The notes: generated by a model from the sequence alone, not told the origin. A stretch of 21,741 nucleotides of DNA from Burkholderiales bacterium (GCA_016177875.1 JACOUL010000008.1:143432-165172), one strand, 5' to 3'; shown: positions 2-21,546, counted from the first letter of the stretch. Translations and numbers: made by a program.

Positions 2-1255
2 GAGCCGTTCACCTACGACTACGAGCGCCTGCAGAATGCGCCGCTGTCGCAGACGCCGCCAACCGCGCGTCCGGTATCAGTCATCACCGGCAAGAAGATG
101 GACAAGATCGAATGGGGTCCGAACTGGGAAGACGATCTGGGCGGCGAATTTGCCAAGCGCAGCAAGGACAAACTGTTCGACAACGTGCAAAAAGAAATGT
201 ACAGCACGTTTGAAAACACGTTCATGATGTACTTGCCGCGTTTGTGCGAACACTGCCTGAATCCGGCATGCGTGGCATCCTGTCCATCGGGCTCCGTCTA
301 CAAGCGCGAAGACGACGGCATCGTGTTGATCGACCAGGACAAATGCCGCGGCTGGCGCATGTGCATCTCCGGCTGTCCGTACAAGAAGATCTATTACAAC
401 TGGTCTTCCGGCAAGGCTGAGAAATGCACCTTCTGCTTCCCGCGTATCGAAGCCGGTCAGCCGACCGTATGTTCCGAAACTTGCGTAGGCCGCATCCGTT
501 ACCTCGGCGTCATGCTGTACGACGCCGACCAGATCGAGCAAGCGGCATCGGTCGCCGATGAGCAGGATTTGTACGAATCGCAGCTCGGTCTGTTCTTGAA
601 TCCCCACGATCCGAAAGTGATCGAGGAAGCACGCAAGCAAGGCATCCCGGAAGCGTGGCTGGAATCCGCCAAGCGTTCGCCGGTGTACAAGATGGCGATG
701 GAATGGAAAGTCGCTTTTCCGCTGCATCCGGAATATCGCACGCTGCCGATGGTCTGGTACATCCCGCCGCTGTCGCCGATCCAAGCTGCAGCGGAGTCCG
801 GCAAGATGGGCATGAACGGCATCATCCCCGACACCAAGAGCTTGCGTATCCCGGTGAAGTATCTGGCCAACTTGCTCACCGCCGGCAAGGAAGCGCCGGT
901 CGTGGGAGCGCTGGACCGTATGCTCGCCATGCGTGCCTACATGCGCGGCAAGTCGGTGGAAGGCGTGGAAAACCTCGACGTGCTGAAGCAAGTTGGTTTG
1001 ACCAAGCCGATGGTGGAAGACATGTACCACATCATGGCGATCGCCAATTACGAAGACCGCTTCGTGATTCCGAGCAGCCACAAGGAAATGGTGGAAGACA
1101 GCTTCAATGAAAAAGGTTCGTGCGGCTTCTCGTTCGGCAATGGATGTTCGGATGGTGTATCCGAGCCTTCGCTGTTCGGCAAGAAGAAGCAAGGGTCGGT
1201 GATTTTTGTCGATATGCCCAAATCCCGCAAAAAGCGGGAGGTGGAAGGAGCATAA
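2..1255 (+). CDS. narH: Respiratory nitrate reductase beta subunit NarH, 5'-truncated at the window edge. The reading frame is open from base 2 (EPFTYDYERLQNAPLSQTPP...), upstream of the ORF-track Met at 98.
   Basis: Translation carries the NarH Fe-S cysteine clusters (CEHCLNPACVASCP, CRGWRMCISGCPYKKIYY, CTFCFPRIEAGQPTVCSETCVGRIRY) and the conserved WYIPPLSP region. The frame is open to the window start. It is followed by narJ and narI. Confidence 0.95.
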   Translation, partial: EPFTYDYERLQNAPLSQTPPTARPVSVITGKKMDKIEWGPNWEDDLGGEFAKRSKDKLFDNVQKEMYSTFENTFMMYLPRLCEHCLNPACVASCPSGSVYKREDDGIVLIDQDKCRGWRMCISGCPYKKIYYNWSSGKAEKCTFCFPRIEAGQPTVCSETCVGRIRYLGVMLYDADQIEQAASVADEQDLYESQLGLFLNPHDPKVIEEARKQGIPEAWLESAKRSPVYKMAMEWKVAFPLHPEYRTLPMVWYIPPLSPIQAAAESGKMGMNGIIPDTKSLRIPVKYLANLLTAGKEAPVVGALDRMLAMRAYMRGKSVEGVENLDVLKQVGLTKPMVEDMYHIMAIANYEDRFVIPSSHKEMVEDSFNEKGSCGFSFGNGCSDGVSEPSLFGKKKQGSVIFVDMPKSRKKREVEGA

Positions 1256-1256
1256 G

Positions 1257-1889
1257 GTGAAGAAGCAATATCAAACGCTGTCGGTTCTACTGCAGTACCC
1301 GGAGCCGCAATTGCTTGAAGCATTGCCGGAGCTTGGCGATGCGGTGTTGGCGATGCCGGAGCTTCATCCGCTGATGGTTTATTTTGGATCGAACGACTTG
1401 ATCAAGTTGCAAGAAAACTATGTGATGACGTTCGACCGCAATCCATCGCATTCGCTGCATCTGTTCGAGCATATTCACGGCGAATCGCGCGACCGCGGGC
1501 AAGCGATGGTCGACTTGATGGAAGAGTACAAGAAATACGGCATGGAAATGTGCAGCGAAGAGTTGCCCGATTACGTGCCGCTATTCCTGGAATTTCTCGC
1601 GCAAGTCGATCAGCGGGAAGCAAGCCGCATGCTGACCGACGCGGTCCATGTGCTGGCACACATAGGCCGCAAACTGGCCGCCAACGGCAGTCCGTATGCA
1701 GCAGTCTTCCAGGTGTTGGAGCGGATGAGCCCGGTGGCGGCGGAAGAATTGTCTGAACCGCCGGTGCGCGATATGGACGAAGCGCTCGAAACTTTCGGTC
1801 CGAGCGCGGACGGTGTCGAACCCTTGCTCAAGCCGACCAACAGCGGAGTGCAGCCGATTAATTTCTATCCGAAGCGCGCAGCGCAATAG
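1257..1889 (+). CDS. narJ: Nitrate reductase molybdenum-cofactor assembly chaperone NarJ. Probable GTG start at 1257, directly after the narH stop; the ORF-track ATG at 1206 would overlap narH by 50 nt.
   Basis: VKKQYQTLSVLLQYPE gives the same spacing to the LSxLLxYP motif as E. coli NarJ. LFEHIHGESRDRGQAMVDL is near-identical to the NarJ core motif. GGAGG/GGAAGGA Shine-Dalgarno at 1237-1250. Confidence 0.88.
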   Translation: MKKQYQTLSVLLQYPEPQLLEALPELGDAVLAMPELHPLMVYFGSNDLIKLQENYVMTFDRNPSHSLHLFEHIHGESRDRGQAMVDLMEEYKKYGMEMCSEELPDYVPLFLEFLAQVDQREASRMLTDAVHVLAHIGRKLAANGSPYAAVFQVLERMSPVAAEELSEPPVRDMDEALETFGPSADGVEPLLKPTNSGVQPINFYPKRAAQ

Positions 1890-1909
1890 GTGAGAGAGGA
1901 GAGTACAAA

Positions 1910-2593
1910 ATGGATTACCTGAATCAATTTTTCTTCGGCATTTATCCCTATATTGCGCTGGCTATCTTTTTGCTGGGCAGCCTGATTCGCTTCGACCGTG
2001 AGCAATACACATGGAAGTCCGAATCGACGCAGCTTTTGCATGCCGGCAGCCTGCGCCTCGGGAATATTCTGTTTCACGTCGGCGTGATCGGCTTGTTTTT
2101 CGGTCATGCGGTCGGTTTGCTGACGCCGGTGTGGGTGTGGGATACGCTGGGCATCTCGCACGGCGCCAAGCAAATTTTCGCCATGGTGGCCGGCGGCGTG
2201 ATGGGCACGCTTTGCCTGATCGGCATCCTGCTATTGCTGGCGCGCCGGTTTGCCAACGATCGCCTACGCGCCGTGACGACCTTCAAAGACAAGGTGGTGC
2301 TGCTGTGGATTCTGGCGACGCTGTCGCTCGGCCTTGCGTCGATCTTCGTGTCGGCCAGTCATACCGACGGCCATATGATGGTGCAGTTGATGAGCTGGGC
2401 ACAGCACGTCGTAACCTTCCGCGGCGATGCGGCGTCATTCATCGCCGATGCGCCGCTGATCTTCAAGCTGCACCTGTTCATGGGCATGTCGGTATTCGTG
2501 ATTTTCCCGTTCACCCGCCTGGTGCATGTGTGGAGCGGGTTTGCATCGGTAGGTTATCTGGCGCGCGCATATCAACTGGTGCGTCCGCGCTGA
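1910..2593 (+). CDS. narI: Respiratory nitrate reductase gamma subunit NarI (dihaem cytochrome b membrane anchor).
   Basis: MDYLNQFFFGIYPYIALAIFLLGSLIRFDREQYTWKS... is closely co-linear with E. coli NarI (FFFDIYPYIAG...RYDYGQYTW), including the haem-ligand histidines. GAGAGGAGAG Shine-Dalgarno upstream. Confidence 0.95.
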   Translation: MDYLNQFFFGIYPYIALAIFLLGSLIRFDREQYTWKSESTQLLHAGSLRLGNILFHVGVIGLFFGHAVGLLTPVWVWDTLGISHGAKQIFAMVAGGVMGTLCLIGILLLLARRFANDRLRAVTTFKDKVVLLWILATLSLGLASIFVSASHTDGHMMVQLMSWAQHVVTFRGDAASFIADAPLIFKLHLFMGMSVFVIFPFTRLVHVWSGFASVGYLARAYQLVRPR

Positions 2594-2613
2594 TTCAGTA
2601 CAAGGAGTAAATC

Positions 2614-3360
2614 ATGGGCATTTCCGTCAACGGCATCGAGCTAACCGATGCGGCAATCGGCCAAGAGCTGCCGCATCACCAAAAGGCGGACAATCCATTG
2701 AAGCAGACGGTGCATGAACTGGTCTTGCGCATGGTGCTGCTGCAGGAAGCCGACCGCCTCGGTCTCACCGGCGACACGGAGGACGACCGCATCGAAGCAT
2801 TGTTCGCGCATGAGCTGGATGTGCCCGAGGCCGATGAAGAAACCTGCGTGCGCTATTACCGCAACAACCCGGAGAAGTTTTCCAACGGCGAAATGATCGA
2901 GGTGCGGCACATCCTGCTGCAAGTCACGCCGAACGCACCGCTGGAATTGCTGCGCGAGACCGGCGAGGCGATGCTGGCTGAATTGAAGGAGCATCCCGAA
3001 CGCTTCGCCGAAATTGCCATGCAATATTCCAATTGCCCGTCCGGCGCGGTCGGCGGCAATCTCGGCCAGCTCACGCGCGGCCAGACCGTTCCCGAATTCG
3101 AGACATTCGTTTTTCGGCTAAATGAAAATCAGCTGGCCGATCGTTTGCTGGAAACGCGCTTCGGGCTGCACATCGTGCAAGTGCTGCGCAAGATCGAGGG
3201 GAAATTGCTGCCTTTCGAGACGGTGCGCGATGACATTCGGCAGTGGCTGCGTTTTCAAAGCTGGCAGCGTGCGATGCATCAATATCTGCAGATTCTGGTG
3301 GGGCAGGCGGATGTGCAGGGGGTTACGTTGGAAGGGGTGGGTAGTCCGTTGGTGCAATAG
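2614..3360 (+). CDS. PpiC/parvulin-type peptidyl-prolyl cis-trans isomerase encoded directly downstream of narI.
   Basis: Rotamase-domain motifs: EVRHILLQV, FAEIAMQYSNCPSGAVGGNLGQLTRGQTVPEFETFVF, RFGLHIVQV. AAGGAG Shine-Dalgarno 7 nt upstream. 20 nt after the narI stop. Confidence 0.85.
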   Translation: MGISVNGIELTDAAIGQELPHHQKADNPLKQTVHELVLRMVLLQEADRLGLTGDTEDDRIEALFAHELDVPEADEETCVRYYRNNPEKFSNGEMIEVRHILLQVTPNAPLELLRETGEAMLAELKEHPERFAEIAMQYSNCPSGAVGGNLGQLTRGQTVPEFETFVFRLNENQLADRLLETRFGLHIVQVLRKIEGKLLPFETVRDDIRQWLRFQSWQRAMHQYLQILVGQADVQGVTLEGVGSPLVQ

Positions 3361-4653: not shown

Positions 4654-5583
4654 ATGAACGATTACTTTTTTCTGTCGTTAGGCATCCTATGCGCCGTCAT
4701 CGGCGGCGAACTGTTTGTGCGCGGCGCAGTGGGCCTCGGATATTGGGCTCGCATATCTCCCGGCGTGATCGGCGCCACGTTTGCCGCATTCGCCACCTCA
4801 AGCCCGGAATTATCGGTCTCGATCAATAGCGCGCTGGCCGGCAGTCCTAAGATCGCGCTCGGCGATGCACTCGGGAGCAATGTCGTGAACATTGCCTTGG
4901 TCTTGGGAGCAGCGTTGGCAGTTTCCGGAATTCAGTGTCCGCGCGACAGCGTGAAACGGGACTTTCCCTTAGCGCTTTTCATTCCCGTCATTACCGGCTT
5001 GTTATGCCTCGATGGCGAACTCTCAAGGCTCGATGGCTTGGCGATGTTGACGGTGTTTTTTCTTTGGCTGACCGCGACTGCCGTGGCGGCGCGAAAACAG
5101 CGCGGCGCTGCCGAAGAACCTCATCACGATCAACAGGGTTGGAAGATACTTCTTACTTGCATCCTTGGGCTGGGGTTCCTGATCGCTGCCGGCAATTTCA
5201 TCGTTACCGGAGCAAAGGGTATCGCCGTTTCCTTCGGCATAGACGAATTCATTATCGGCGCAACCATCGTTGCGGTCGGCACGTCGGCACCGGAATTGGC
5301 GACAACGATTATCGCCAAGCTGCGCGGTCATGACGAAATCGGTTTAGGCACCATCCTCGGCAGCAATATCTTCAACGGGATCTTTATTGTGGCGATCGCG
5401 GCCTCGATTCACCCCATACGAATTGCATGGAATGAAGTTGCCATAGCGTTGGCGTTCGGCTTGACCGCTGTAGCGTTGACTTATCCGCCGAGCAACGGCT
5501 TCATCACGCGCAAACGAGGGGTTTTGCTTCTCTCGCTATATGCCGTTTATCTCGCAATGGTTTTTCAAGGCAAGGTAAGCTGA
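4654..5583 (+). CDS. Ca2+/cation antiporter (CaCA family, YrbG-like) inner-membrane protein.
   Basis: Two alpha-repeat motifs (GATFAAFATSSPELSVSI and GATIVAVGTSAPELATTIIA) typical of Na+/Ca2+ exchanger membrane regions. About 10 predicted transmembrane helices. Confidence 0.85.
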   Translation: MNDYFFLSLGILCAVIGGELFVRGAVGLGYWARISPGVIGATFAAFATSSPELSVSINSALAGSPKIALGDALGSNVVNIALVLGAALAVSGIQCPRDSVKRDFPLALFIPVITGLLCLDGELSRLDGLAMLTVFFLWLTATAVAARKQRGAAEEPHHDQQGWKILLTCILGLGFLIAAGNFIVTGAKGIAVSFGIDEFIIGATIVAVGTSAPELATTIIAKLRGHDEIGLGTILGSNIFNGIFIVAIAASIHPIRIAWNEVAIALAFGLTAVALTYPPSNGFITRKRGVLLLSLYAVYLAMVFQGKVS

Positions 5584-5626: not shown

Positions 5627-6595
5627 TTAATTACCTGACTTTGTATTCACCACAGCGACGCTAGCATGATCCAGGTCCGGCCGCCGCCATGGATCGACGT
5701 GCGTCATGAGATTCAACACCCGGTGCCGCTCCATCACGCGCTGCCTCGCGACGACGGAAATGTCATGCCCTTGCTCGACCGTCAGCGATGCATCGACTTC
5801 AATGTGCGCATCGACCACGATCATGTCGCCCATCTTGCGGGTGCGCAGATCGTGCACGTTATGCACGCCCGGCGTTTCCGTGAGCGTTTGCCGAATGGCT
5901 TCCACTTCTTTGTCGTCCGCCGAACGGTCGACCAGGTCGTGCAAGGCATCCCAGCCGAATCCCCAACCCATGCGCGCGATCATGAAACCGACGATCAGCG
6001 CGGCGATCGGGTCCAATAGCGGAAAGCCTGCCAGGTTACCGGCGATGCCGAGTCCCACCACCAGCGACGATGCCGCATCCGAGCGCGCATGCCAGGCATT
6101 TGCCACCAGCATGCCGGATTTGACGCGCTTGGCAACCGACAGCATGTAGCGAAACAATCCTTCTTTAATGACGAGCGTTGCGCCTGCCACCCAAAGCGCG
6201 GCGACATGAACGGTCGGAATGGCATCGGGTGCCTGCAGTTTCTGCAGCGCCGACCACAACATGCCGATGCCGACCGCCAACAGCAGCACGCCCAACACCA
6301 GCGATGCGGCATTCTCGAAACGCTGATGGCCGTACGGGTGATCCTGGTCGGCTTCCTTATGGCTATGCCGGCTGGCGAACAGCACCACGAAGTCGCCCAA
6401 GAGATCGGAAAGCGAATGAATGCCGTCCGCGATCAAGCCTTGCGATTTGGACAGCGTGCCCACCACAATTTGCACGACCGTCAGCAAGAGGTTGATGACG
6501 ATGCTCACCCAGCTCGTGCGCGATGCCGCGGCCTGGCGCTCGGCGACGCTGACTATCGTGTCTTCGGGATCGTCATTGAATTTTTCGAATTCCAT
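5627..6595 (-). CDS. Cation diffusion facilitator (CDF, FieF/CzcD-like) divalent-metal efflux transporter.
   Basis: The first transmembrane helix carries HSLSDLLGD. Also DHPYGHQRFE (the CDF signature HxxxD...H/D metal site), six transmembrane helices and a C-terminal cytoplasmic domain (VHDLRTRKMGDMIVVDAHIEV). Confidence 0.85.
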   Translation of the reverse strand: MEFEKFNDDPEDTIVSVAERQAAASRTSWVSIVINLLLTVVQIVVGTLSKSQGLIADGIHSLSDLLGDFVVLFASRHSHKEADQDHPYGHQRFENAASLVLGVLLLAVGIGMLWSALQKLQAPDAIPTVHVAALWVAGATLVIKEGLFRYMLSVAKRVKSGMLVANAWHARSDAASSLVVGLGIAGNLAGFPLLDPIAALIVGFMIARMGWGFGWDALHDLVDRSADDKEVEAIRQTLTETPGVHNVHDLRTRKMGDMIVVDAHIEVDASLTVEQGHDISVVARQRVMERHRVLNLMTHVDPWRRPDLDHASVAVVNTKSGN

Positions 6596-6679
6596 GGGCG
6601 GACGTGGCGGCGATATTCAGTTATGGGCATGGACGCGCCGAGATTATCACGTCCGGTAAGGTCATGCGCAATCGGTTAC

Positions 6680-6696
6680 GTTAAGAAATCCTTAAG
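6680..6696 (+). promoter_or_regulatory. PmrA/QseB-box-like direct repeat GTTAAG-aaatc-CTTAAG (hexamers 11 bp apart), 34 nt upstream of the haem/two-component-system operon start codon.
   Basis: Read directly from the sequence. It matches the YTTAAK-N5-YTTAAK architecture reported for PmrA-type regulators (recalled from the literature). One-helical-turn periodicity is typical of OmpR-family sites. Confidence 0.4.
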
Positions 6697-6730
6697 GTGG
6701 CGGCGGCATCATGCAATCTAAGGAGGTGCC

Positions 6731-7144
6731 ATGAACCTGATATCTAAACCGCTATCGCTTGCCATCGTCATCGGCGCGGCGGCAATTTTCATCAATATGC
6801 GGGCCGCGTATGCGGCTGCGCCGGCCGAACTGCTTTCCGGCTACACGAGCCGGAGCGGCACGCTTGCTTCTTCGGCACGCGGCCGGGAGTTCTTTACATC
6901 GAAACACGGGCATGAATGGAGCTGCGCTTCATGTCACGGCGCGGTGCCGACGCAGTCCGGCGAGCATGCCGCTACCGGAAAGACGATTTTGCCGCTGGCG
7001 CCCGCCGTCAATGCCGAACGTTTTACCGACGCGGCAAAGAGCGAAAAATGGTTCCGCCGCAATTGCAATGACGTCGCGGGCCGGGAGTGCACCGCCGCCG
7101 AAAAGGCCGACATCTTGGCCTGGCTGCTGATGTTTAAACCTTGA
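6731..7144 (+). CDS. Periplasmic DUF1924-type mono-haem c-type protein; first gene of a haem/two-component-system operon.
   Basis: Strong AAGGAGG Shine-Dalgarno at 6720-6726. Signal peptide (…AAIFINMRAAYAAAP). Single CxxCH motif (CASCHG). Small size (137 aa). Confidence 0.7.
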   Translation: MNLISKPLSLAIVIGAAAIFINMRAAYAAAPAELLSGYTSRSGTLASSARGREFFTSKHGHEWSCASCHGAVPTQSGEHAATGKTILPLAPAVNAERFTDAAKSEKWFRRNCNDVAGRECTAAEKADILAWLLMFKP

Positions 7145-7160: not shown

Positions 7161-7646
7161 ATGCCACTCAAATTGATTTTTTGCTTTAGCCGCTTGCTGG
7201 CCGCGCTGTTGATCGCTATCGGTATCGGCCATTCAGCCTTCGCCGACGACCATCGTGCAGCGCGCGTACCGTTTTTACCGAAATACCAACAGGAGTGCGC
7301 CGCCTGCCATCTCGCCTATCCGCCCGGCATGATGCCGTCGGCTTCCTGGCAACGAATCATGAACAACTTGCCGCGTCACTTCGGTACCGATGCTTCGCTG
7401 GATGCCGCTACGGTGAAGGAATTGTCGACCTGGCTCAATGTCAATGCCGGCACCTACAAGCGCGTTGCCGAAGCGCCGCCCGAAGACCGGATCACGCGAT
7501 CGGCATGGTTCATTCGCAAGCACGATGAAGTGCCTGCCGCGACCTGGAAGCTGGCTGCAGTGAAGAGCGCTTCGAACTGTGCCGCCTGCCATACCCGAGC
7601 CAACCAAGGAGATTTCAATGAACGCTTTATCCGACTCCCGCGCTGA
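7161..7646 (+). CDS. Periplasmic dihaem cytochrome c (DHC family).
   Basis: GGAGA Shine-Dalgarno 7 nt upstream. Signal peptide (…IGHSAFADD). Two CxxCH motifs (CAACHL, CAACHT) about 95 residues apart. Confidence 0.75.
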   Translation: MPLKLIFCFSRLLAALLIAIGIGHSAFADDHRAARVPFLPKYQQECAACHLAYPPGMMPSASWQRIMNNLPRHFGTDASLDAATVKELSTWLNVNAGTYKRVAEAPPEDRITRSAWFIRKHDEVPAATWKLAAVKSASNCAACHTRANQGDFNERFIRLPR

Positions 7647-8352
7647 TGCGCCGGAAAACAAAACAGAAACACGCAAGATCCTCGTGTGGGATGCGCCGGT
7701 TCGCGTTTTTCACTGGCTGATGGTGTTGAGCTTTGCCGGCGCATATCTCACTGCCGAGAGCGAGCGGTGGCGACTGGTGCATGTCACGCTCGGCTATACG
7801 ATGGCCGGCTTGGTGGTCTTTCGCATTCTCTGGGGTTTGACGGGAACGCGATACGCGCGCTTTGCGAATTTCGTGCGCGGCCCCAAAGCAGTAGCGGCTT
7901 ATCTCCGGACCTTGCTGCACGGGAAAGCTGAGCACCATGCCGGGCACAATCCGGCCGGCGCGTTGGCGATTGTCGCTTTGCTCGGCTTGACGATCGTGGT
8001 GGGAATGTCGGGCTGGGCGACTTTCAACGACATGGCAGGACATTGGTTGGAAGAGGTGCATGAGTCGGCAGCAAACATCATGCTGGCGGTCGTCGGCGTG
8101 CATGTCGCCGGCGTGGCGGTGTCGAGCTGGTTGCATCGTGAAAATTTGGTCCGCGCCATGTTCACCGGTAAAAAGTCCGGCGTCCCGAAGGATGGCATTC
8201 GCAGCACCTGGCGCAGTGTTGCTGCGGTAGTCTTGGTTTCCGTGCTCGGCTTCTGGGTGCTGCAGTGGCAAGGCGGGCCGTCAGGCGGCGTATTCTCCGA
8301 CCGGCCCGTTGCATCGGCCAAAGCTGATCGCCATCATCACGATGAGGACTGA
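7618..8352 (+). CDS. Membrane cytochrome b561 / Ni-Fe-hydrogenase-type b cytochrome (PF01292-like). Start placed at the internal ATG 7618, not the track ATG 7579.
   Basis: AGGAG Shine-Dalgarno at 7607-7611 precedes ATG 7618. Conserved VWDAPVRVFHW entry motif about 24 aa from that Met. Four transmembrane helices with His ligands (HWLMVL, HESAAN, HVAG). The start overlaps the 3' end of the dihaem gene by 29 nt. Confidence 0.78.
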   Translation: MNALSDSRADAPENKTETRKILVWDAPVRVFHWLMVLSFAGAYLTAESERWRLVHVTLGYTMAGLVVFRILWGLTGTRYARFANFVRGPKAVAAYLRTLLHGKAEHHAGHNPAGALAIVALLGLTIVVGMSGWATFNDMAGHWLEEVHESAANIMLAVVGVHVAGVAVSSWLHRENLVRAMFTGKKSGVPKDGIRSTWRSVAAVVLVSVLGFWVLQWQGGPSGGVFSDRPVASAKADRHHHDED

Positions 8353-8381: not shown

Positions 8382-9053
8382 ATGCGTATCCTGCTTGCCG
8401 AAGACGACACCTTGCTGGGCGATGGCTTAAAAGCCGGCTTGCGCCAGCTTGGGTTTCAAGTCGATTGGGTACGCGACGGCGAGGCGGCGGAGCACGAGTT
8501 GCGCGCACAGGAGTATGCCGCCGTGGTGCTCGATCTGGGTTTGCCGCGTAAGGATGGACTGGCGGTGTTAAAGACGCTGCGCGACGCGCGCAATGCGACG
8601 CCGGTACTGGTGCTGACGGCGCGCGATACCGTGCCGGACCGCATACGAGGACTTGATTTGGGTGCCGACGACTACGTCGTCAAGCCGGTGGATTTGCATG
8701 AGCTTGGCGCGCGCTTACGCGCACTGGTTCGCCGCGCGCACGGCCACGCCCACGAAGAGTTGGCCGCGCAGGATGTGGTGCTCGATCCGGCTGCCCGTTC
8801 GGTGCGCAAGGCCGGCAAGCCGGTGACGCTTTCCACGCGGGAGTTCGATCTGCTGCAGATCCTGATGCTCAACGCCGGGCGCGTGCTTTCTCGCGAACAG
8901 CTGGAACAGCATATCTACGGCTGGGGGCAGGAGGTCGAGAGCAATGCGATCGAAGTGCACGTCCATAATCTGCGGCGCAAGCTCGGCAATGCGCTCATCC
9001 AAACCGTGCGCGGCGTGGGATACATTCTTTTGCGCGACGCGCCGCAATCATGA
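8382..9053 (+). CDS. OmpR/PhoB-family response regulator (PmrA/QseB/TctD-like), cotranscribed with the haem-protein genes.
   Basis: Receiver motifs (LLAEDD, VVLDLGLP with the phospho-Asp, LVLTAR, GADDYVVKP) plus a winged-helix C-terminus (TLSTREFDLLQIL, VRGVGYIL). Only 29 nt after the cytochrome b stop. Confidence 0.9.
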   Translation: MRILLAEDDTLLGDGLKAGLRQLGFQVDWVRDGEAAEHELRAQEYAAVVLDLGLPRKDGLAVLKTLRDARNATPVLVLTARDTVPDRIRGLDLGADDYVVKPVDLHELGARLRALVRRAHGHAHEELAAQDVVLDPAARSVRKAGKPVTLSTREFDLLQILMLNAGRVLSREQLEQHIYGWGQEVESNAIEVHVHNLRRKLGNALIQTVRGVGYILLRDAPQS

Positions 9054-10396
9054 ATAAGCATTCCGGTTCATTGCAAGGACGCCTGCTTGCCTTGGTGCTT
9101 GGCGTGGTGACGATGGTTTGGCTGGCGGTTGCCGCGGCAATTTGGCTTGACGCCCGCCATGAACTCGACGAGCTGTTGGACGCTCATCTGGCCCAGGCGG
9201 CCGCGCTATTGGTGATGCAGTCCGGCCAATTCGAGCATGACGAACACGGCATCGATGCGCCATCATTGCATCGCTATGCGCCGAAAGTGGCGTTCCAAGT
9301 TTTTCATGAAGGGCGCCTGGCATTGCGTTCCGCGAATGCGCCTGCCGAACCCATGATTCGCCGGGGCACGGATTTTCATGCGGGATTCAAGACTGTGCAG
9401 ATCGAAGGCGCAGCGTGGCGCGTGTTCGCAGCGTACGGCGCGGAGCGCGATATCCAGGTGTATGTGGGTGAAAGAACGAGCTCGCGTTCTTCCATTCTGT
9501 GGGCCGTTTTGCGCAGTACATTGTGGCCGATGGCCGTCGCGTTGCCTTTGCTGGCGTTGGCCGTCTGGTGGGCGGTATTTCGCGGCGTGGCGCCGTTACG
9601 AAGGTTGGGCCGCACGCTCGCTGAACGGTTGCCGCAGGATCTGCAGCCGGTCGCAATGGACGATGCGCCATCCGAAATGAGGCCGATGATCGGCGCGCTC
9701 AACATCCTGTTCGGCCGAATCGGTACGCTGCTGGAATCCGAACGCCGCTTCACGGCCGACGCCGCGCATGAACTGCGCACGCCGATTGCCGCCATCCGCG
9801 CGCAGGCACAAGTGGCTTTGGGTGAAACCGATGATGCCGCGCGCCGCCATGCATTGCAATCCACGATAGAAGGGTGCGACCGTGCCACGCGTTTGGTGGA
9901 GCAGTTGTTGACACTCTCGCGCTTGGAAGCCGCCGAAGCGCCGCCGATGACGAGCGTCGATCTGCGCGCATTGGCGCAAGCTGTCGTGGCGGAGATTGTA
10001 CCCAAGGCGATCGCAAAAAATCAGACACTGGAATTTGCCGGGAATGAGGCGTGCCGTATGGCAGGGGATGAAACGCTGTTGATGGTTCTGGTGCGGAATT
10101 TGGTCGACAATGCCGTGCGCTACAGCCCGTCGAGCGCGCGGGTGAGCGTGAATGTTCGACGGGAAAATAATCGGGTCCATTTAAGTGTTGAAGACAGCGG
10201 CCCGGGTATGGCGGAAGCTGATCGTGTAAAGTTGGGCGAAAGATTCTTCAGGGTAACAGGCAGCGGCGAGACCGGCAGCGGCCTGGGTTGGTCTATCGTG
10301 CGCCGCATCGCTTTGGTGCATAAAATGGACCTACAAGTTGAAAAATCGGCAAAGCTGGGCGGCTTGGCGGTGCATATGCAAGTGCACTCCATCTAG
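9050..10396 (+). CDS. QseC/PmrB-like membrane sensor histidine kinase.
   Basis: ATGA start/stop overlap with the response regulator. Two transmembrane segments flank an approximately 120-aa periplasmic domain. H-box (FTADAAHELRTPIAAIRAQAQ), N-box (LVDNAVRY) and G-boxes (EDSGPGM, GSGLGWSIV). Confidence 0.9.
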   Translation: MNKHSGSLQGRLLALVLGVVTMVWLAVAAAIWLDARHELDELLDAHLAQAAALLVMQSGQFEHDEHGIDAPSLHRYAPKVAFQVFHEGRLALRSANAPAEPMIRRGTDFHAGFKTVQIEGAAWRVFAAYGAERDIQVYVGERTSSRSSILWAVLRSTLWPMAVALPLLALAVWWAVFRGVAPLRRLGRTLAERLPQDLQPVAMDDAPSEMRPMIGALNILFGRIGTLLESERRFTADAAHELRTPIAAIRAQAQVALGETDDAARRHALQSTIEGCDRATRLVEQLLTLSRLEAAEAPPMTSVDLRALAQAVVAEIVPKAIAKNQTLEFAGNEACRMAGDETLLMVLVRNLVDNAVRYSPSSARVSVNVRRENNRVHLSVEDSGPGMAEADRVKLGERFFRVTGSGETGSGLGWSIVRRIALVHKMDLQVEKSAKLGGLAVHMQVHSI

Positions 10397-10507: not shown

Positions 10508-11482
10508 ATGCTCACCGACCGTTTTGGTCGATCGATCCAATATCTGCGGCTGTCCGTGACGGACCGTTGCGACTTGCGTTGCACGTATTGCATGCCGAAA
10601 GGATTCAAGGGCTTCGAGGAACCGGAACATTGGCTGACCTTCGATGAAATTGAGCGCCTGCTGGCCGCTTTTGCGCGCCTGGGTACGTCGCGTATCCGTT
10701 TGACCGGCGGCGAGCCGCTCTTGCGCCGCAATCTGCCGGAGCTTGCCGCGCGTATTTCCGCCTTGCCCGGCATCCGCGATTTGTCCTTGTCGACCAATGC
10801 CACGCGTCTGAACCGTTACGCATATGAATTGCGCGAAGCCGGTGTCGCGCGCATCAACGTCAGCCTCGATTCGCTCGACCGCGCCTGCGTGGAAAACATC
10901 ACCGGCCATGACAGCCTGACCAAAATCATGGATGGCTTGATGGCAGGGAAGACGGCCGGCTTTTCGCCCATCAAGGTCAACATGGTGGTCATGCGCGGCA
11001 CCAATGATCACGAAATCGATGACATGGTGGCGTTTTGTATCGAGCATGGATTTATTTTGCGTCTGATCGAAGCAATGCCGATGGGGGCCACCGGCCGCAA
11101 CACCGAGTATGTCGATCTTGGTCCGGTACAGGCGCGCCTCAAGGAGAAGTTCGATTTGCATCCGCAAGCGGCCGAACTCGGCGGCGGCCCGGCGCGTTAT
11201 TTGGCCACGGCGGACGGCAGCGCCAGCATCGGATTTATCACGGCGATGTCGCAGCATTTTTGCGCGACCTGTAATCGCGTGCGCCTCGCGGTCGACGGCA
11301 CGCTATATTTGTGCCTTGGGCAGGAAGAGAAGTTCGAATTCCGTCCGCTGTTACGCGGCGGCGCAAGCGATATCGAGCTCGAAGACGCGATCCGTGCCGC
11401 CATCGAATTAAAGCCGCAAAAACATGAATTCCGCGAGCAGCCGCAAAAGATCGTGCGCTTTATGTCGCAGACAGGAGGATGA
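10508..11482 (+). CDS. moaA: GTP 3',8-cyclase MoaA (radical-SAM enzyme, first step of molybdopterin biosynthesis).
   Basis: LRLSVTDRCDLRCTYCMP radical-SAM cysteine triad. GGEPLLR. C-terminal second Fe-S cluster cysteines (CATCNRVRL...GTLYLCLG). 324 aa. Confidence 0.9.
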   Translation: MLTDRFGRSIQYLRLSVTDRCDLRCTYCMPKGFKGFEEPEHWLTFDEIERLLAAFARLGTSRIRLTGGEPLLRRNLPELAARISALPGIRDLSLSTNATRLNRYAYELREAGVARINVSLDSLDRACVENITGHDSLTKIMDGLMAGKTAGFSPIKVNMVVMRGTNDHEIDDMVAFCIEHGFILRLIEAMPMGATGRNTEYVDLGPVQARLKEKFDLHPQAAELGGGPARYLATADGSASIGFITAMSQHFCATCNRVRLAVDGTLYLCLGQEEKFEFRPLLRGGASDIELEDAIRAAIELKPQKHEFREQPQKIVRFMSQTGG

Positions 11483-11484
11483 CC

Positions 11485-12147
11485 ATGGAAGCTATCGAAA
11501 AATTCGTTCGCGGTTTTCGGCGCTTCCAGCAGCAATATTTAAGCGAACCTGCCACCTTCGATAGCCTGCGCCAGGGACAGAATCCGGGTACGTTGGTAAT
11601 CGGATGCTGTGATTCACGCGTCGATCCGGTGCTGCTTACCGGCAGCGACCCGGGCGACATGTTCGTCGTGCGCAACATCGCCAACCTGGTGCCGCCTTGT
11701 ACGCCGGATGCGCCGCCCGGCGTGACCTCCGCCATTGAATTTGCAATTTGCGGCTTACAAGTTGCCCGCGTGATTGTTCTCGGCCATGCGCGCTGCGGCG
11801 GCATACGGGCGCTCATGAATCCCCGGCGTCTGGCGGAAGAAACCGATTTCGTCGGCCGCTGGATGCGTATTGCCGAACCCGTGCGGCTAAGCGTCATGCA
11901 GGAATTGCGCGACAAGACGGAAGAGCAGCAGCATAAGGCGTGCGAATTGGCGAGCATCCTGCAGTCGCTCGATAACTTGCTGACCTATCCCTGGATTAAG
12001 CGGCGGGTCGAAGAGGGGACGCTTGTTTTGCATGGATGGTATTTCGACATTGAATCGGGCGCATTGCTGGCATACTCACCCCGCCAGCAAGAATTTCTTC
12101 CCATGGTTTGCCCGCTTGAAGATGAGGCATTCGCCACGGCGGAGTAA
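11485..12147 (+). CDS. Beta-class carbonic anhydrase. Start placed at ATG 11485; the track ATG at 11479 overlaps the moaA stop.
   Basis: Beta-carbonic-anhydrase zinc-ligand motifs (CCDSRVDP and GHARCGG) plus a dimerisation region. AGGAGGA Shine-Dalgarno at 11472-11478, 6 nt before ATG 11485. Confidence 0.85.
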   Translation: MEAIEKFVRGFRRFQQQYLSEPATFDSLRQGQNPGTLVIGCCDSRVDPVLLTGSDPGDMFVVRNIANLVPPCTPDAPPGVTSAIEFAICGLQVARVIVLGHARCGGIRALMNPRRLAEETDFVGRWMRIAEPVRLSVMQELRDKTEEQQHKACELASILQSLDNLLTYPWIKRRVEEGTLVLHGWYFDIESGALLAYSPRQQEFLPMVCPLEDEAFATAE

Positions 12148-12201: not shown

Positions 12202-14163
12202 GTGCTCTTATTCAGAAATCTCATGACGCTTAATTCACATTTTCCGGCTCGGCACAAACTATCGACCAAAATCGCCGGCGCGCTGGTGAGCTTCTTGCTG
12301 TTGGCCTTAATCGTCATCGGCGTGACGCTTTTATTGTCTTGGCAGCTGGAAGGCAGTTCGGCGGCGATTAATGAGACGGGTAGCTTGCGCATGCATAGCT
12401 ATCGTTTGACGCTCTTGGTTACCCGCGCAGTCGATAAGCCGGGGCAGCCTAGTTTACGGGCGGCGGCTGAGCAAGAAATGCAGGCGATCGACTCGACTTT
12501 TAATTTGTTGGCGCACAGCGATCCGCAGCGGCCGCTTGCATTGCCGCCCACCGACAGCATTCGCACGACATTTGCCAGCTTATCGAAGCGTTGGCGGTAC
12601 GGAATGCGCCCGCTCGCAGTGGCGTCGCTCGGTGCCGGTACGGAAAGCGCCGCCGCATGGCAGAAGTATCAGGCTGAAGTGGAACGCTTTGTTTTCGATA
12701 TCGACCGCTTGGTGCATGCAATCGAACGCGACAGCGAATGGCGTACCTTTTGGCTGCGTTCGTCGCAACTGGCGTTGGTGGCAATGGCGCTTACCGGCAC
12801 CGTTGCGCTCATCTATTTGATGTTCATGCTGATCGTTGAGCCCGTCACGCGCTTGAGTGAGGGGATGAAGAGTATGGCAGATCAAGATTTGAGCGTGCGT
12901 CTGCCGGTGGAAAGCAAGGATGAATTCGGGCAATTGACGATAGGCTTTAATCAAATGGCCGACCGCTTGCAAGCGCTTTACGACAGTTTGGAAGACCGGG
13001 TGCGCAAAAAAACCGCCGCGCTGGCCGATCAAAATTGCGAGCTTGCGCTCTTGTACGACAGCGCCTCCTTTTTGCAACTGCCGCAATCGCTGGAATCGAT
13101 GTGTGACGGATTTCTTCAGCGCATCCGCACTTATTTCGGTGCCGACGGCAGCTCGGTGCGCGTGCTGGACCCGCGCAACAGCAATTTGCATATGGTGGTC
13201 CATCACGGCATTTCACAGGAACTCGTCGAAACGGAACGTTGCTTGAAAGTGGGCGATTGTCTGTGCGGCGATGCCGTTGCCAAAAAAATTACGGTGATTC
13301 ATGATTTGCGCAAAATGGATGAAGCCCATCATTTGCAGTGTCACCGTGAAGGTTTTGCCACCGTTTCCGTGTTTCATATACACGTGCACAACCAGCATTT
13401 GGGCTTTTTTAATTTGCACTTCCGGACGGCCAAGACATTTAGCGAGCATGAACAAGCCTTGCTCGAAACGCTGGGTCAGTTGCTCGGCATCGCCATTGAA
13501 AATCTGCGTTTGGCGACGCGTGAACGCGAGATGGCGATTTCGGAAGAGCGCAATCTGGTCGCCCAGGGTTTGCACGACAGCATTGCCCAAGGTCTGACTT
13601 TCCTGAATATTCAAGTGCAAATGCTGGAAGATTCTTTGCGTTACGGGCGCGTGGACGAAGCGACCGCCATCGTTCCGGTGTTGCGCGCCGGCGTGCAGGA
13701 GAGTTATGAGGATGTCCGCGAATTATTGCTGAACTTCCGCAGCCGCTTATCCGAGGACGATTTAATCGGCGCGATAAAAGGCACGCTCGACAAGTTCAAA
13801 CGTCAAACCGGCATCGAGGCGGAGTTGATCGCCAAAGGCAATGGCGCGCCCTTCCCGCGCGAGCAACAATTGCAGGTTTTGTTCATTGTGCAGGAAGCGC
13901 TGTCGAATATCCGCAAGCATGCGTTGGCAAGCAAGGTAGAAGTGAAGCTGGACGATAGCCAAGATTTCACGCTGTCGATTTCCGACAATGGTGTCGGCTT
14001 TGATCCTGCGGGGCTGGCGCAGCGCGGCGATAATCATGTTGGTTTGAATATTATGCAAGAGCGTGCGCATCGCATCCATGCGATACTTGACGTTAATTCG
14101 GCGCCGGGCAAGGGCACGACGGTGTTGCTGCGCCTGCTGAGGGAACATCGGCGCGCCGCATAA
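12202..14163 (+). CDS. narX: Nitrate/nitrite sensor histidine kinase NarX. The start is uncertain: GTG 12202 or ATG 12223, neither with a good Shine-Dalgarno.
   Basis: P-box GSLRMHSYRL in the periplasmic domain between two transmembrane helices. HAMP domain. Cysteine-containing central module (CLCGD). HisKA_3 H-box (ERNLVAQGLHDSIAQGL). HATPase (DNGVGFD, GLNIMQERA...GKGTTV). Confidence 0.85.
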   Translation: MLLFRNLMTLNSHFPARHKLSTKIAGALVSFLLLALIVIGVTLLLSWQLEGSSAAINETGSLRMHSYRLTLLVTRAVDKPGQPSLRAAAEQEMQAIDSTFNLLAHSDPQRPLALPPTDSIRTTFASLSKRWRYGMRPLAVASLGAGTESAAAWQKYQAEVERFVFDIDRLVHAIERDSEWRTFWLRSSQLALVAMALTGTVALIYLMFMLIVEPVTRLSEGMKSMADQDLSVRLPVESKDEFGQLTIGFNQMADRLQALYDSLEDRVRKKTAALADQNCELALLYDSASFLQLPQSLESMCDGFLQRIRTYFGADGSSVRVLDPRNSNLHMVVHHGISQELVETERCLKVGDCLCGDAVAKKITVIHDLRKMDEAHHLQCHREGFATVSVFHIHVHNQHLGFFNLHFRTAKTFSEHEQALLETLGQLLGIAIENLRLATREREMAISEERNLVAQGLHDSIAQGLTFLNIQVQMLEDSLRYGRVDEATAIVPVLRAGVQESYEDVRELLLNFRSRLSEDDLIGAIKGTLDKFKRQTGIEAELIAKGNGAPFPREQQLQVLFIVQEALSNIRKHALASKVEVKLDDSQDFTLSISDNGVGFDPAGLAQRGDNHVGLNIMQERAHRIHAILDVNSAPGKGTTVLLRLLREHRRAA

Positions 14164-14186
14164 TAAATGGAACATGAACTTCTTAT

Positions 14187-14870
14187 ATGGACGCATCCAG
14201 ACCGATTAGCGTACTTTTAATTGACGACCACACCCTATTTCGTAGCGGTATCAAGTCCTTATTGCAACGCTATGAAGATTTCACCGTGGTCGGCGAAGCT
14301 TCCGACGGTGTCGAAGGTATTAAACGTGCCCGTCAATTGCAGCCGGATGTGGTGCTGCTCGATTTAAATATGCCTGGTATTTCAGGTCTGGAGACACTGC
14401 AGCTTTTACTGCAGGATTGTCCCGATGCCGCCGTGATCATGCTGACTGTTTCTGAAGAAGCGGAAGATTTGACCACTGCCCTGCAGTCAGGCGCGCGCGG
14501 TTATTTGATTAAGAATATCGATGCCGATTATCTGGTGCGCGCCATCCGCCGTGCCGCTGCCGGCGATTCGGTTCTGGCCGAAGCGATGGCCGGCAAATTG
14601 GTTGCCCATTTGCAGGGCGGCGGTTCGCAAAAGACCGCCGTTCCTTCGGACTTGGATAAGTTGACCCCGCGCGAACGCGAAATCTTGGCATGCCTTGCGC
14701 GCGGCGAAAGCAACAAGATCATCGCGCGAACTCTGGATGTTGCGGAAAGCACCGTAAAAATCCATGTCCAAAATATCTTAAAGAAATTACATCTCACCAG
14801 TCGGGTCCAAGCCGCCGTTTTTGCGGTGGAACATGGCATGGCCGGCACACAAGTTAGCAACGACCGTTAA
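14187..14870 (+). CDS. narL: NarL/FixJ-family nitrate response regulator with a LuxR-type helix-turn-helix.
   Basis: Receiver (LLIDDH, VVLLDLNMPG, IMLTV), LuxR helix-turn-helix (LTPREREILACLARGESNKIIARTLDVAESTVKIHVQNILKKL). 23 nt downstream of narX. Confidence 0.85.
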   Translation: MDASRPISVLLIDDHTLFRSGIKSLLQRYEDFTVVGEASDGVEGIKRARQLQPDVVLLDLNMPGISGLETLQLLLQDCPDAAVIMLTVSEEAEDLTTALQSGARGYLIKNIDADYLVRAIRRAAAGDSVLAEAMAGKLVAHLQGGGSQKTAVPSDLDKLTPREREILACLARGESNKIIARTLDVAESTVKIHVQNILKKLHLTSRVQAAVFAVEHGMAGTQVSNDR

Positions 14871-15022
14871 AATTTTGACAATCGTTCGGGGCCGGCAGTC
14901 CGTTTGCCTGTGCTCTTTGCTGTATTTGTGCAGCGCTCCTGTCCGAATAGCGGTTGTCGCGCTACACTAACCAAAAAATAAAAAGCACATAACGCGAACC
15001 AGCATGGGGGAGAGCCTGCATA

Positions 15023-16231
15023 GTGCTGAAAAAAATCCAAGTAAAACAATTGAAGGTGGGAATGTTCCTGCATGAATTGTGTGGCGCCGGCTGGCTGCAC
15101 AATCCGTTCTGGCGTTCTGCTTTTTTAATTCAAACCCCCAAAGAAATTCAGCAGATTCTTGATTGCGGCGTCCAAGAACTTTGGATCGACACATCAAAAG
15201 GCGTGGACGTCGATAGCCCGGCGGCGCCACCGCCGCAAGCCGCCGCGCCTGCGCCGGCACCAACGCCTCAACCCGCCAAGCCCGAACGCGTGAGCGTCGA
15301 AGCTGAAATGGCGCGCGCCGCCAAAATTTGCGCTGCCGCTAAGCGCGAAGTCACCTTGATGTTCAACGAAGCGCGGCTAGGGCGCGCGCTGAATGTCAGC
15401 AATGCCATGCCTTTGGTGGAAGAAATTTCGCAGTCGGTTTTGCGCAATCCCGATGCTCTAATTGGACTGGCGCGGTTAAAGACCAAGGACGATTACACCT
15501 ATATGCATTCCGTTGCGGTGTGCGCCTTGATGGTGGCGTTGGCGCGCCAGCTCGGGCTCGAAGAGTTGCAGGTGCGCGAAGCGGGTTTTGCCGGTCTTTT
15601 GCACGACATCGGCAAGATGATGATCCCCAATGAAATTCTCAATAAACCCGGTGCGCTGTCGCGCGAGGAATTTCTCGTTATCCAGACCCATCCGGTTGAA
15701 GGCCACAAGCTTTTGCTGGAAGGGCAGGGCGCGACGGATGCGGCGCTGGACGTGGTTTTGCATCATCATGAAAAAGTGGACGGCACCGGCTATCCGGATA
15801 AACTGGCCGGTGACAAGATTACGCTTCTCGCCAGAATGGGCGCAGTATGCGACGTGTACGACGCATTGACGTCGAATCGCGTCTACAAAAACGGCTGGTG
15901 CCCGGCCGAAGCGATACGCAGGATGGCGGAATGGGCGGGGCACTTCGATGACAAGGTGTTCCAGGCGTTCGTCAAGAGCACCGGCATTTATCCGGTCGGC
16001 ACCTTGGTCATGCTTGAGTCGGGGCGCTTAGGCGTGGTGATCGAACAATCCGAAAAATCGCTTTTGACGCCGCGCGTCAAAGTGTTTTTCTCGACCAAAT
16101 CCAAGACCTACATCACGCCGGAAATTATCAATATGGCCGGCCCCGGTAAAGTCGACAAGATCGTTGGCCGCGAAGACGCCGCCAAGTGGGGGTTAAAAAA
16201 CGTTAACGAATTTTGGACCGGCGGCCGTTGA
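15023..16231 (+). CDS. HD-GYP-domain c-di-GMP phosphodiesterase with an N-terminal DUF3391-like domain and a Pro/Ala-rich linker. GTG start.
   Basis: HDIGKMMIP...HHHEKVDGTGYPDKL (HD...HHxE/K..GxGYP signature). N-terminal VKQLKVGMFLHELCGAGWLHNPFW is DUF3391-like. Low-complexity PAAPPPQAAAPAPAPTPQPAKPE linker. GGGGAGAG Shine-Dalgarno about 9 nt upstream of GTG 15023. Confidence 0.8.
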   Translation: MLKKIQVKQLKVGMFLHELCGAGWLHNPFWRSAFLIQTPKEIQQILDCGVQELWIDTSKGVDVDSPAAPPPQAAAPAPAPTPQPAKPERVSVEAEMARAAKICAAAKREVTLMFNEARLGRALNVSNAMPLVEEISQSVLRNPDALIGLARLKTKDDYTYMHSVAVCALMVALARQLGLEELQVREAGFAGLLHDIGKMMIPNEILNKPGALSREEFLVIQTHPVEGHKLLLEGQGATDAALDVVLHHHEKVDGTGYPDKLAGDKITLLARMGAVCDVYDALTSNRVYKNGWCPAEAIRRMAEWAGHFDDKVFQAFVKSTGIYPVGTLVMLESGRLGVVIEQSEKSLLTPRVKVFFSTKSKTYITPEIINMAGPGKVDKIVGREDAAKWGLKNVNEFWTGGR

Positions 16232-16262
16232 TCGTTAAATTTTTCCCGTCGCCCGGAAAAAA

Positions 16263-16276
16263 TTGATTCATATCAT
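16263..16276 (+). promoter_or_regulatory. FNR/DNR/NNR-type box TTGAT-tcat-ATCAT (9/10 to TTGAT-N4-ATCAA) upstream of nnrS, with a TACCAT -10 candidate at 16299-16304 (class-II spacing).
   Basis: Read directly from the sequence. The box centre lies about 41.5 nt upstream of the predicted transcription start if the -10 element is TACCAT. nnrS genes are typically NNR/DNR/NsrR-controlled. Confidence 0.5.
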
Positions 16277-16334
16277 GTGAGTTTGGCGTTCCATTTTTTA
16301 CCATGGGAGCATCCAAATCTCTCTTAAGCTTCCC

Positions 16335-19184: not shown

Positions 19185-19314
19185 TGCCTAAAACGTTAGG
19201 CTTTAAACATTCATGCAAGTTCATCATCGCGGCGTCGTGTTTTGAATGAAGGAATTTTGTCCATGTAGAAAAAATGTGCAAAAATCAGTCACCGTTTATC
19301 TCAGGTGAATGACA

Positions 19315-19977
19315 ATGCGGTTTTTGCTGGTCGAAGATGACTCGATGGTGGGCGAAAGTCTGCGCAAGGCGTTGCGCCAGGATGGCTTTACCATTGACTG
19401 GGTACAGGACGGTCGGGCGGCGGAAGTCGCCTTGAGCAGTGAAACGTATGATTTGCTTCTGCTGGATCTCGGGCTGCCGAGCAAGTCGGGACTGGAAGTA
19501 TTGCGATCTGTACGGCAAACGGGCAATCGCATTCCAGTATTGATTTTGACGGCGCGGGATGCGGTATCCGATCGAATCACCGGCCTGGATGCGGGTGCCG
19601 ACGATTATCTAATCAAGCCATTCGATTTCGATGAGCTGGAAGCACGTATCCGGGCGCTGCTGCGCCGCCAGGCCGGACGCGTCGATTCGGTGATTCGCCT
19701 GGGTGAGCTCACGCTCAACACCACCAGCCGCGAGGTGCATTTCAAGGGGCAGGCGGTAACCTTGTCCGGACGCGAATACGCGCTCTTGGAAGCATTCCTG
19801 GACCGGCCTGGCGCGGTGTTGTCCTTGGCGCAGCTGGAAGAAAAAATTTACGGCTGGGATGATGAAATCGGCAGTAATGCCGTCGAAGTCTATATCCATG
19901 GCTTGCGCAAAAAACTCGGTTCGGACTTCATCAAGAATGTGCGCGGCGTCGGCTACATGGTGCCCAAACCGCAATGA
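19315..19977 (+). CDS. OmpR/PhoB-family response regulator, paralog of the 8382-9053 regulator (PmrA/QseB-like). Start placed at ATG 19315.
   Basis: AGGTGA Shine-Dalgarno at 19303-19308, 6 nt before ATG 19315 (MRFLLVEDD). Receiver and winged-helix motifs near-collinear with the first regulator (LLLLDLGLPSKSGLEVL, ILTARDAVSDRITGLDAGADDYLIKP, VRGVGYMV). Confidence 0.9.
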   Translation: MRFLLVEDDSMVGESLRKALRQDGFTIDWVQDGRAAEVALSSETYDLLLLDLGLPSKSGLEVLRSVRQTGNRIPVLILTARDAVSDRITGLDAGADDYLIKPFDFDELEARIRALLRRQAGRVDSVIRLGELTLNTTSREVHFKGQAVTLSGREYALLEAFLDRPGAVLSLAQLEEKIYGWDDEIGSNAVEVYIHGLRKKLGSDFIKNVRGVGYMVPKPQ

Positions 19978-21321: not shown

Positions 21322-21546
21322 AAAAATATTTTTAAAATTTTAAGTCTGGTTTAAATTTCCGCACATAAGATTCGATTGCCTAATTGCGTCCGAGCGATGA
21401 AAAGTTTTTTTGCCTCGGAGTAATTACAGGGAGCCGAATAATACTCGTCGATTCGTCGATGCAAATCACGCCAAGGCGTCAAGTAGATTCGGAAAGAATT
21501 GCCGGAGGGAAAATTCGGCCTTAAAAAACCATTTTTTGGAGATAGC

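Follow-up and report, generated by a model that had tools for sequence, protein, structure and literature searches.

A conserved TTAAG direct repeat upstream of SHP cytochrome operons in Burkholderiales as the probable operator of the operon's own PmrA/QseB-like regulator

The direct repeat GTTAAG-N5-CTTAAG, located upstream of an operon for an SHP-type (sphaeroides heme protein) cytochrome c in a Burkholderiales bacterium, is probably an operator of the PmrA/QseB/BqsR type that is recognized by the response regulator encoded in the same operon and that serves its positive autoregulation. This reading comes from the comparison of sequences, those of the window (the whole stretch of 21,741 nucleotides analysed here, JACOUL010000008.1:143432-165172) and those of 80 related loci. 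Literature searches on the regulation of DUF1924/SHP and on the BasR transcription complex retrieved nothing defining an shp operator; the box, its consensus sequence and the promoter geometry are derived here and are new relative to the literature searched. The coordinates of the features are given in Table 1.

An earlier note on this DNA had described the two hexamers as lying one helical turn apart and 34 nt upstream of the first start codon. Their coordinates and spacing were confirmed, with 34 nt between the repeat and the ATG at position 6731, and the period of the repeat is indeed 11 bp. The proposed likeness to the PmrA/BasR pattern YTTAAK-N5-YTTAAK holds as a resemblance with one mismatch, the G at position 1. 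When one mismatch is allowed, this pattern gives three matches in the window for 0.43 expected, two of which are the 6680-6696 site read on both strands. The third one, TTTAAGTCTGGTTTAAA at 21339-21355, is found just 3' of a second kinase gene and shares positions with the 3' end of a minus-strand ORF (21351-21737); the position weight matrix (PWM) of the family gives it fewer than 12 bits, and it is probably due to chance. The exact pattern TTAAG-N6-TTAAG is present once in the window (6681-6696) versus 0.02 expected, and any match to it was obtained in 1 of 100 shuffles. The scan of the window with the family PWM revealed no further box of 12 bits or more. As TTAA is self-complementary, the site also reads as an inverted repeat, TTAAG-N5-CTTAA, whose 5-bp arms are perfectly complementary in the window. 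The site being thus both a direct and an inverted repeat, the window alone leaves the choice undecided between them.

Table 1. Features of the shp operon, its promoter region and the divergent genes. Positions are those of the window unless a locus is named.
Feature	Position	Strand	Basis or remark
Promoter-distal half-site GTTAAG (family S-TTAAG)	6680..6685	+	sequence, 77-locus alignment
Spacer AAATC, 5 nt (family AAA-n-C), partly conserved	6686..6690	+	77-locus alignment
Promoter-proximal half-site CTTAAG (family S-B-TAAG)	6691..6696	+	sequence, 77-locus alignment
Predicted -10 hexamer CATCAT (family C-A-n-C-A-T)	6707..6712	+	10 nt 3' of box
Predicted transcription start, ~6719	6716..6721	+	inferred from -10 position
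Shine-Dalgarno AAGGAGG of shp	6720..6726	+	sequence; AAGGAG kept in most loci, 5-7 nt before ATG
shp, SHP-type (DUF1924) monoheme cytochrome c, signal peptide	6731..7144	+	
Soluble diheme cytochrome c (DHC)	7161..7646	+	Pfam PF09626, 4.5e-38; PDB 2FW5, 1.6e-24
Membrane cytochrome b561	7618..8352	+	Pfam PF01292, 1.3e-27
OmpR-family response regulator, PmrA/QseB-like, proposed to bind the box	8382..9053	+	
QseC-like sensor histidine kinase (2CSK_N, HisKA, HATPase_c)	9050..10396	+	
Divergent CDF cation-efflux gene	5627..6595	-	shares the 135-nt intergenic region with the shp operon
Small membrane-protein genes	L019 4608-4769; L058 3771-3932; L074 4632-4793	-	

A scan of representative genomes with an SHP alignment gave 80 Burkholderiales loci (81 with the window), and the anchor pattern NNTAA[G/C]-N5-NNTAA[G/T/A] was searched in the 300 nt around the shp start. 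The pattern occurs exactly once in 77 of the 81 loci and the PWM scan adds one (L031), so that a single box precedes shp on the coding strand in 78 loci. The ungapped alignment of 77 loci on the box gives the consensus sequence S-TTAAG-AAAnC-S-B-TAAG. In the distal half-site T1 is conserved in 68 and G5 in 76 of these sequences, and in the spacer A6, A7, A8 and C10 are conserved in 66, 59, 50 and 67, respectively; the spacer is probably a region of minor-groove or wing contact. The proximal half-site has G16 in 70/77 and is CCTAAG, GCTAAG or GGTAAG in most relatives, CCTAAG being the commonest form. The columns of the box hold 1.1-2 bits against about 0.1 bit per column of the flanking intergenic DNA, those of the TAA core being fixed by the anchoring expression and hence not independent evidence of conservation. 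An unbiased count of k-mers found TTAAGA in 58 of the 81 upstream regions and in none of the coding controls, and TAAG-N7-TAAG in 70 of them, whereas any other spacing between N3 and N11 is present in one region at most. When about 760 kb of related DNA was scanned on both strands with the PWM, the strong matches were almost all shp boxes. This conservation is the decisive evidence against a chance occurrence. The orthologues also favour the direct repeat over the inverted one, since G5 and G16 are conserved and position 12 fails to complement position 4 in all but 14 of the 77 sequences.

The multi-alignment agrees with the location of the box in the -35 region that the earlier note had supposed: a conserved -10-like hexamer, CAnCAT, follows the box at a constant distance of 10 nt, with no indel in the 77 aligned loci. 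In this hexamer A28 and T32 are present in all sequences and A31 in 72/77; A28 and T32 correspond to the -11 A and the -7 T, which are key positions of the sigma-70 -10 hexamer. The conserved CAnCAT is not a start codon (ATG), because G33 is found in only 55/77 sequences. The composite pattern was recovered once per locus, on the plus strand upstream of shp, in 65 of the 80 loci. The box-ATG distance is not constant (51 to 67 nt) and, since that between box and hexamer is, this variation falls between hexamer and ATG, which suggests that the box replaces the -35 element. With the predicted transcription start, the box would extend from about -39 to -23. A consensus scan upstream of shp detected neither a TTGACA-like -35 nor a sigma-70 consensus promoter, which agrees with a dependence on an activator. 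The spacing of about 10 bp, the lack of a -35 consensus and the repeats on the coding strand are the attributes of a class II activator site, the start being a predicted one. Two caveats apply to this promoter: the predicted start gives a leader of only about 12 nt, and the -10-like hexamer begins with C or G and not with T.

An inverted repeat CATGGCnnC...GnnGCCATG, which joins the -10 region to the start codon, was considered as a mechanism and rejected on account of its weak support. It is present in many of the loci with the shortest leaders (25 in the alignment) and spans 6707-6733 in the window, with the Shine-Dalgarno sequence in the loop. The pairing amounts to 83% versus 79% in shuffles, and the covariation, 0.211 versus 0.148 (a value reached by 3 of 500 shuffles), is confounded by the relatedness of the loci. 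The fold of 6707-6733 in the window is no better than that of shuffles (z -0.53), and the left arm would be untranscribed from the predicted start, which counts against this mechanism. A search of the region 6500-6850 against Rfam gave no known RNA element at E values up to 1.

The product of shp matches Pfam PF09086 (2.6e-38) and the structure of the R. sphaeroides SHP (PDB 1DW0, 3.5e-29). The five genes of the operon share one strand and are separated by 16, -29, 29 and -4 nt. The cytochrome b561 ORF is open from a GTG at 7579, the ATG at 7618 agrees with the homologues, and the overlap of this gene with the end of the DHC gene is the same in relatives; the start of the kinase gene overlaps the stop of the regulator gene by 4 nt. 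The five-gene order is found again in about 70 loci, in every case where the contig is long enough to show it. The interior of the operon contains no second box, no clear terminator and no excess of terminator-like sites, and the five genes would be co-transcribed from the promoter of the box. Around the operon, genes linked to denitrification and NO occupy the stretches 98-3360, 10508-12147 and 12202-17534. Among the neighbours are narH (5' end outside the window), narJ and narI, as well as moaA, carbonic anhydrase, a NarX/NarL-like pair, an HD-GYP-like protein and nnrS; a peptidyl-prolyl isomerase, DinB and a Ca/Na antiporter are encoded elsewhere in the window. The location of the shp operon amid such genes agrees with the role that has been proposed for SHP, as an NO dioxygenase or in connection with denitrification.

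The description of the operon regulator as PmrA/QseB-like stands at the level of the subfamily. Its best NCBIfam matches are QseB (256.7 bits) and PmrA (248.5 bits), below the equivalog cut-offs of 345 and 330 bits, and the best match of the kinase is QseC (300.6 bits, for a cut-off of 475); by these scores the pair belongs to the PmrA/QseB subfamily and is orthologous to neither. The regulator aligns without gap over residues 1-218 to the PmrA of Klebsiella pneumoniae (4S04/4S05, E 6e-51), for which complexes with DNA have been solved (4S04/4S05, also 8JO2). Among the DNA-contact residues known from the complex and from an NMR model (PMC4660055, PMC3973317), N188, V192, H193, H195, N196, R171, R198 and R210 are identical in the two proteins and two others differ conservatively (T187S, K153R). 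In the periplasmic domain of the kinase, an ExxE-like motif, EHDEH, was examined as a metal-binding candidate and set aside; it is not conserved in 67 orthologues, so nothing is deduced from it on the signal of the kinase.

The regulator was found in 72 of the 80 related loci, with 70-87% identity, and the box is present in 73 of the 73 loci with an adjacent regulator (window included). Five loci with enough flanking sequence have no adjacent regulator (L001, L007, L024, L036 and L073). Two of them keep the box: L007 and L001, the latter with a perfect box and no regulator within 5 kb. The three others display degenerate or different repeats, CTTTAC-N5-CTTAGT in L024 (~4690-4750), CTTAAG-N5-ATTCAG in L036 (~4905-4960) and CTTTAC-N5-CTTAAC in L073 (~1290-1350); regulator and kinase are both absent there and the spacing hexamer-N5-hexamer-N10 followed by a -10-like hexamer is retained, the site being either decayed or re-specified. 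The association of the box with an adjacent regulator gives a Fisher p of ~1e-4, uncorrected for phylogeny.

Residue 196 of PmrA makes a base contact and is the equivalent of Arg201 of PhoB, which reads a guanine (PMC3973317). An Arg196 is found in 13 loci, from Paraburkholderia, Burkholderia, Trinickia, Caballeronia and a Burkholderiaceae MAG; their second half-site is GGTAAG in 13/13 and a G occupies box position 0 in 11/13. With N196 or H196, the second half-site is CCTAAG, GCTAAG, CTTAAG or CTTAAT. A co-evolution of the recognition helix with the second half-site (box positions 11-12) is therefore possible; this covariation, which concerns one clade and essentially one phylogenetic event, is suggestive and not conclusive.

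The mechanism that we propose, with positive autoregulation as its probable outcome, would begin with the phosphorylation of the regulator by the QseC-like kinase. A dimer of the regulator would bind head-to-tail to the two half-sites, in the place of the -35 element, and recruit the RNA polymerase in the manner of PhoB/PmrA-type class II activators. Transcription from about position 6719 would then proceed through the shp, DHC, cytochrome b, regulator and kinase genes and, the transcript including the last two, the system would amplify its own expression. The sign of the regulation is an uncertain part of this scheme, because BqsR boxes over the -35 or -10 can go with negative regulation (PMC13522522).

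Several other explanations have to be weighed against this one. The box could be bound by another regulator of the same subfamily, encoded in the window or elsewhere in the genome. The window does contain a second two-component pair (19309-21275) whose regulator (19309-19977) is PmrA/QseB-like (PmrA, 247 bits) and 51% identical to the operon regulator; PmrA and QseB share a site in the qseBC promoter of Escherichia coli (PMC5053249), and the perfect box of L001 is there without any regulator nearby. However, the recognition helix of the paralogue has Y193 and G196 at the proposed specificity residues, against H193 and N196 in both the operon regulator and PmrA, and the paralogue is accordingly less likely to be the protein that binds the box; the box also accompanies the adjacent regulator without exception and its second half-site tracks residue 196 of that regulator. 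We regard this alternative as unlikely. A role of the same regulator as a repressor, which would block the RNA polymerase at the -35 (negative autoregulation), would fit the overlap of the box with the core promoter and the negative or mixed regulation that goes with the BqsR boxes over the -35 or -10 in Pseudomonas aeruginosa (PMC13522522). Yet there is no recognizable -35 for a repressor to occlude, and the strict 10-nt spacing with same-strand orientation in 78/78 loci is the signature of activation of the PhoB/PmrA/QseB type, where a repressor site would tolerate positional drift; negative autoregulation is thus quite improbable.

The palindromic reading, i.e. an operator TTAAG-N5-CTTAA for an unrelated dimeric helix-turn-helix regulator or one that serves mainly the divergent CDF gene, draws on the perfect arms in the window, on the match of the pattern to both strands and on the reverse box that the divergent side possesses in some relatives. 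It seems very improbable to us, given that the symmetry is lost across loci while G5 and G16 are kept, that the PWM gives 29.2 bits on the plus strand and 13.5 on the minus strand, that the sequence 10 nt downstream on the minus strand is GCGCAT, without the essential -11 A, and that the CDF gene is absent from most of the loci that keep the box. As for a chance occurrence without function, only the expectation of 0.43 for the YTTAAK pattern with one mismatch speaks for it, and the comparative data refute it to the point of leaving it next to no probability: the exact TTAAG pattern is expected 0.02 times, 78/81 loci retain the box, at a constant distance from the -10 and between unconserved flanks, and the 760 kb scanned on both strands yielded hardly any strong matches besides these sites.

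The operator and the autoregulation proposed for the shp operon have close counterparts. In pmrCAB the target gene or genes precede the regulator and kinase genes in one autoregulated operon, and the shp operon likewise has its target genes ahead of the regulator and kinase genes. The pho box is made of tandem direct repeats with a period of 11 bp, which replace the -35 and lie 10 bp upstream of the -10; the geometry is the same here as in this PhoB class II arrangement, with the difference that the half-site of the pho box is of the CTGTCAT type and that the recognition helix is another one. A TTAAG direct repeat that replaces the -35 of an autoregulated two-component operon is in itself a textbook design. 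The PmrA/BasR box of Salmonella and Klebsiella consists, as here, of two direct hexamers with a 5-bp spacer, G1 being the mismatch to Y in the window, and the verified PmrA box of pbgP, CTTAAT-ATTAT-CCTAAG (PMC3973317), has as second half-site the CCTAAG that is commonest among the orthologues. Unlike in the PmrA system, the regulator is PmrA-like and no orthologue (248.5 versus 330 bits), the kinase is QseC-like and not PmrB-like, and the target is a cytochrome operon in place of lipid A modification.

The QseB box CTTAA-N6-CTTAA flanks the -35 of the ygiW-qseBC promoter of Aggregatibacter, an operon in which the gene of a periplasmic protein precedes those of the regulator and kinase and which is positively autoregulated (PMC5053249). 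The window sequence, GTTAA-N6-CTTAA, belongs to the same class of repeat with the same spacing and one mismatch, its presumed -35 position following from the predicted -10; three cytochrome genes are found upstream of the pair in place of ygiW, and the scores remain below the QseB/QseC cut-offs. The box of BqsR/CarR in P. aeruginosa is TTAAG-N6-TTAAG (PMC13522522), a consensus common to BqsR and QseB to which 6681-6696 is an exact match, and BqsR, itself OmpR-like, falls within the same subfamily (match of the receiver domain to 8GC6). The family consensus differs from that of BqsR and QseB by the CTAAG or GTAAG of its promoter-proximal half-site. The sensor of BqsRS binds Fe2+, whereas the EHDEH motif of the present kinase is not conserved, and the action of BqsR is global, while in the window the site is confined to the shp promoter. 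An SHP operon with a QseC-like sensor named 'SK2' was reported in Burkholderia and other species, where its self-regulation was presumed (Meyer, Kyndt and Cusanovich 2010, PMC2909971); as in the window, it comprises SHP, a soluble diheme cytochrome c, a cytochrome b, a regulator and a QseC-like kinase, and the parts of that article consulted here define no cis-element for it.

If, on a more tentative reading, the box and its regulator define a dedicated regulon, this would couple a QseC-like sensor to a quinol-dependent system of SHP, diheme cytochrome and cytochrome b, a candidate NO dioxygenase; shp is strongly induced in the nitrate-reducing Fe(II) oxidizer Ferrigenium (bioRxiv 10.64898/2026.01.22.701106). 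On that reading, the pairing of N196 or H196 with C(C/T)TAAG and of R196 with GGTAAG would illustrate how a recognition helix of the OmpR family and its half-site co-evolve. SHP is widespread, and knowledge of its operator and of the promoter layout (box, 10 nt, CAnCAT) would be of practical value as a reporter for the signal sensed by the QseC-like kinase, as a composite motif for the scan of complete genomes in search of the remaining regulon, and as a testable change of specificity at one residue of the recognition helix. The tentative regulon would extend, in many relatives, to a small membrane protein of about 54 amino acids and to the cation exporter (CDF or P-type ATPase) whose gene comes after it.

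Of the 80 loci, 17 have the divergent CDF gene upstream of shp (74-78% identical, at 71 to ~1400 nt); in the window this gene directly abuts the intergenic region. A use of the window box in the reverse direction for this gene was judged weak (13.5 bits, followed by GCGCAT), and the CDF gene is only a possible second target. A candidate promoter of its own is seen on the minus strand, TTGCGC (6670-6665), 17 nt, then GATAAT (6647-6642). In two Aquabacterium loci (L006 4892-4920 and L027 4935-4963) an inverted CTTAG half-site lengthens the box on its upstream side, CTTAGCCATGGCTTAAGAAAGCCCTAAG; with only 8 nt between this CTTAG and the start codon of the CDF gene, there is too little room for a separate promoter. 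An inverted repeat GCCTAA-AACG-TTAGGC is also present at 19186-19201, in the AT-rich region upstream of the second two-component pair.

Outside the shp boxes, the PWM scan of the ~760 kb found essentially one independent strong site, at L058 3982 on the minus strand, which reads CTTAAGAAGACGTTAAG, then 10 nt, then GATGCT. This site and the reverse box of L074 precede homologous genes for the small membrane protein of ~54 amino acids (e.g. MHPALRLFIRQYLGVVCATLLPVVLTTFLSIPLNLGGHPGETRGADAMADLHMT), which is conserved, unannotated and encoded divergently from shp, and which has no family match in Pfam or NCBIfam. With tblastn, at least 13 loci were seen to have the small gene ahead of shp in divergent orientation, namely those of Table 1 and L001, L015, L016, L026, L033, L049, L061, L065, L070 and L075; it is absent from the window. 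The dedicated regulon that these elements would compose throughout the Burkholderiales, not previously described, with a QseC-like sensor that governs the SHP system and the small protein/exporter genes and with co-evolution of residue 196 and half-site, is put forward here as a tentative and rather doubtful proposal. The operon regulator probably has the small membrane-protein gene itself as a second target, judging from the sequences upstream of this gene: on its own strand it is preceded, in every locus where it was found, by a repeat resembling the box, then 10 nt and a -10-like hexamer. In most loci this box has a degenerate first half-site (CTCAG- or ATCAG-like), N6 and then CTTAAG; L016 and L075 have CATAAG in place of CTTAAG, with the hexamer CAGTCT. 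Downstream of the small gene comes the CDF gene in each of the six loci checked and, in L058, a P-type ATPase gene.
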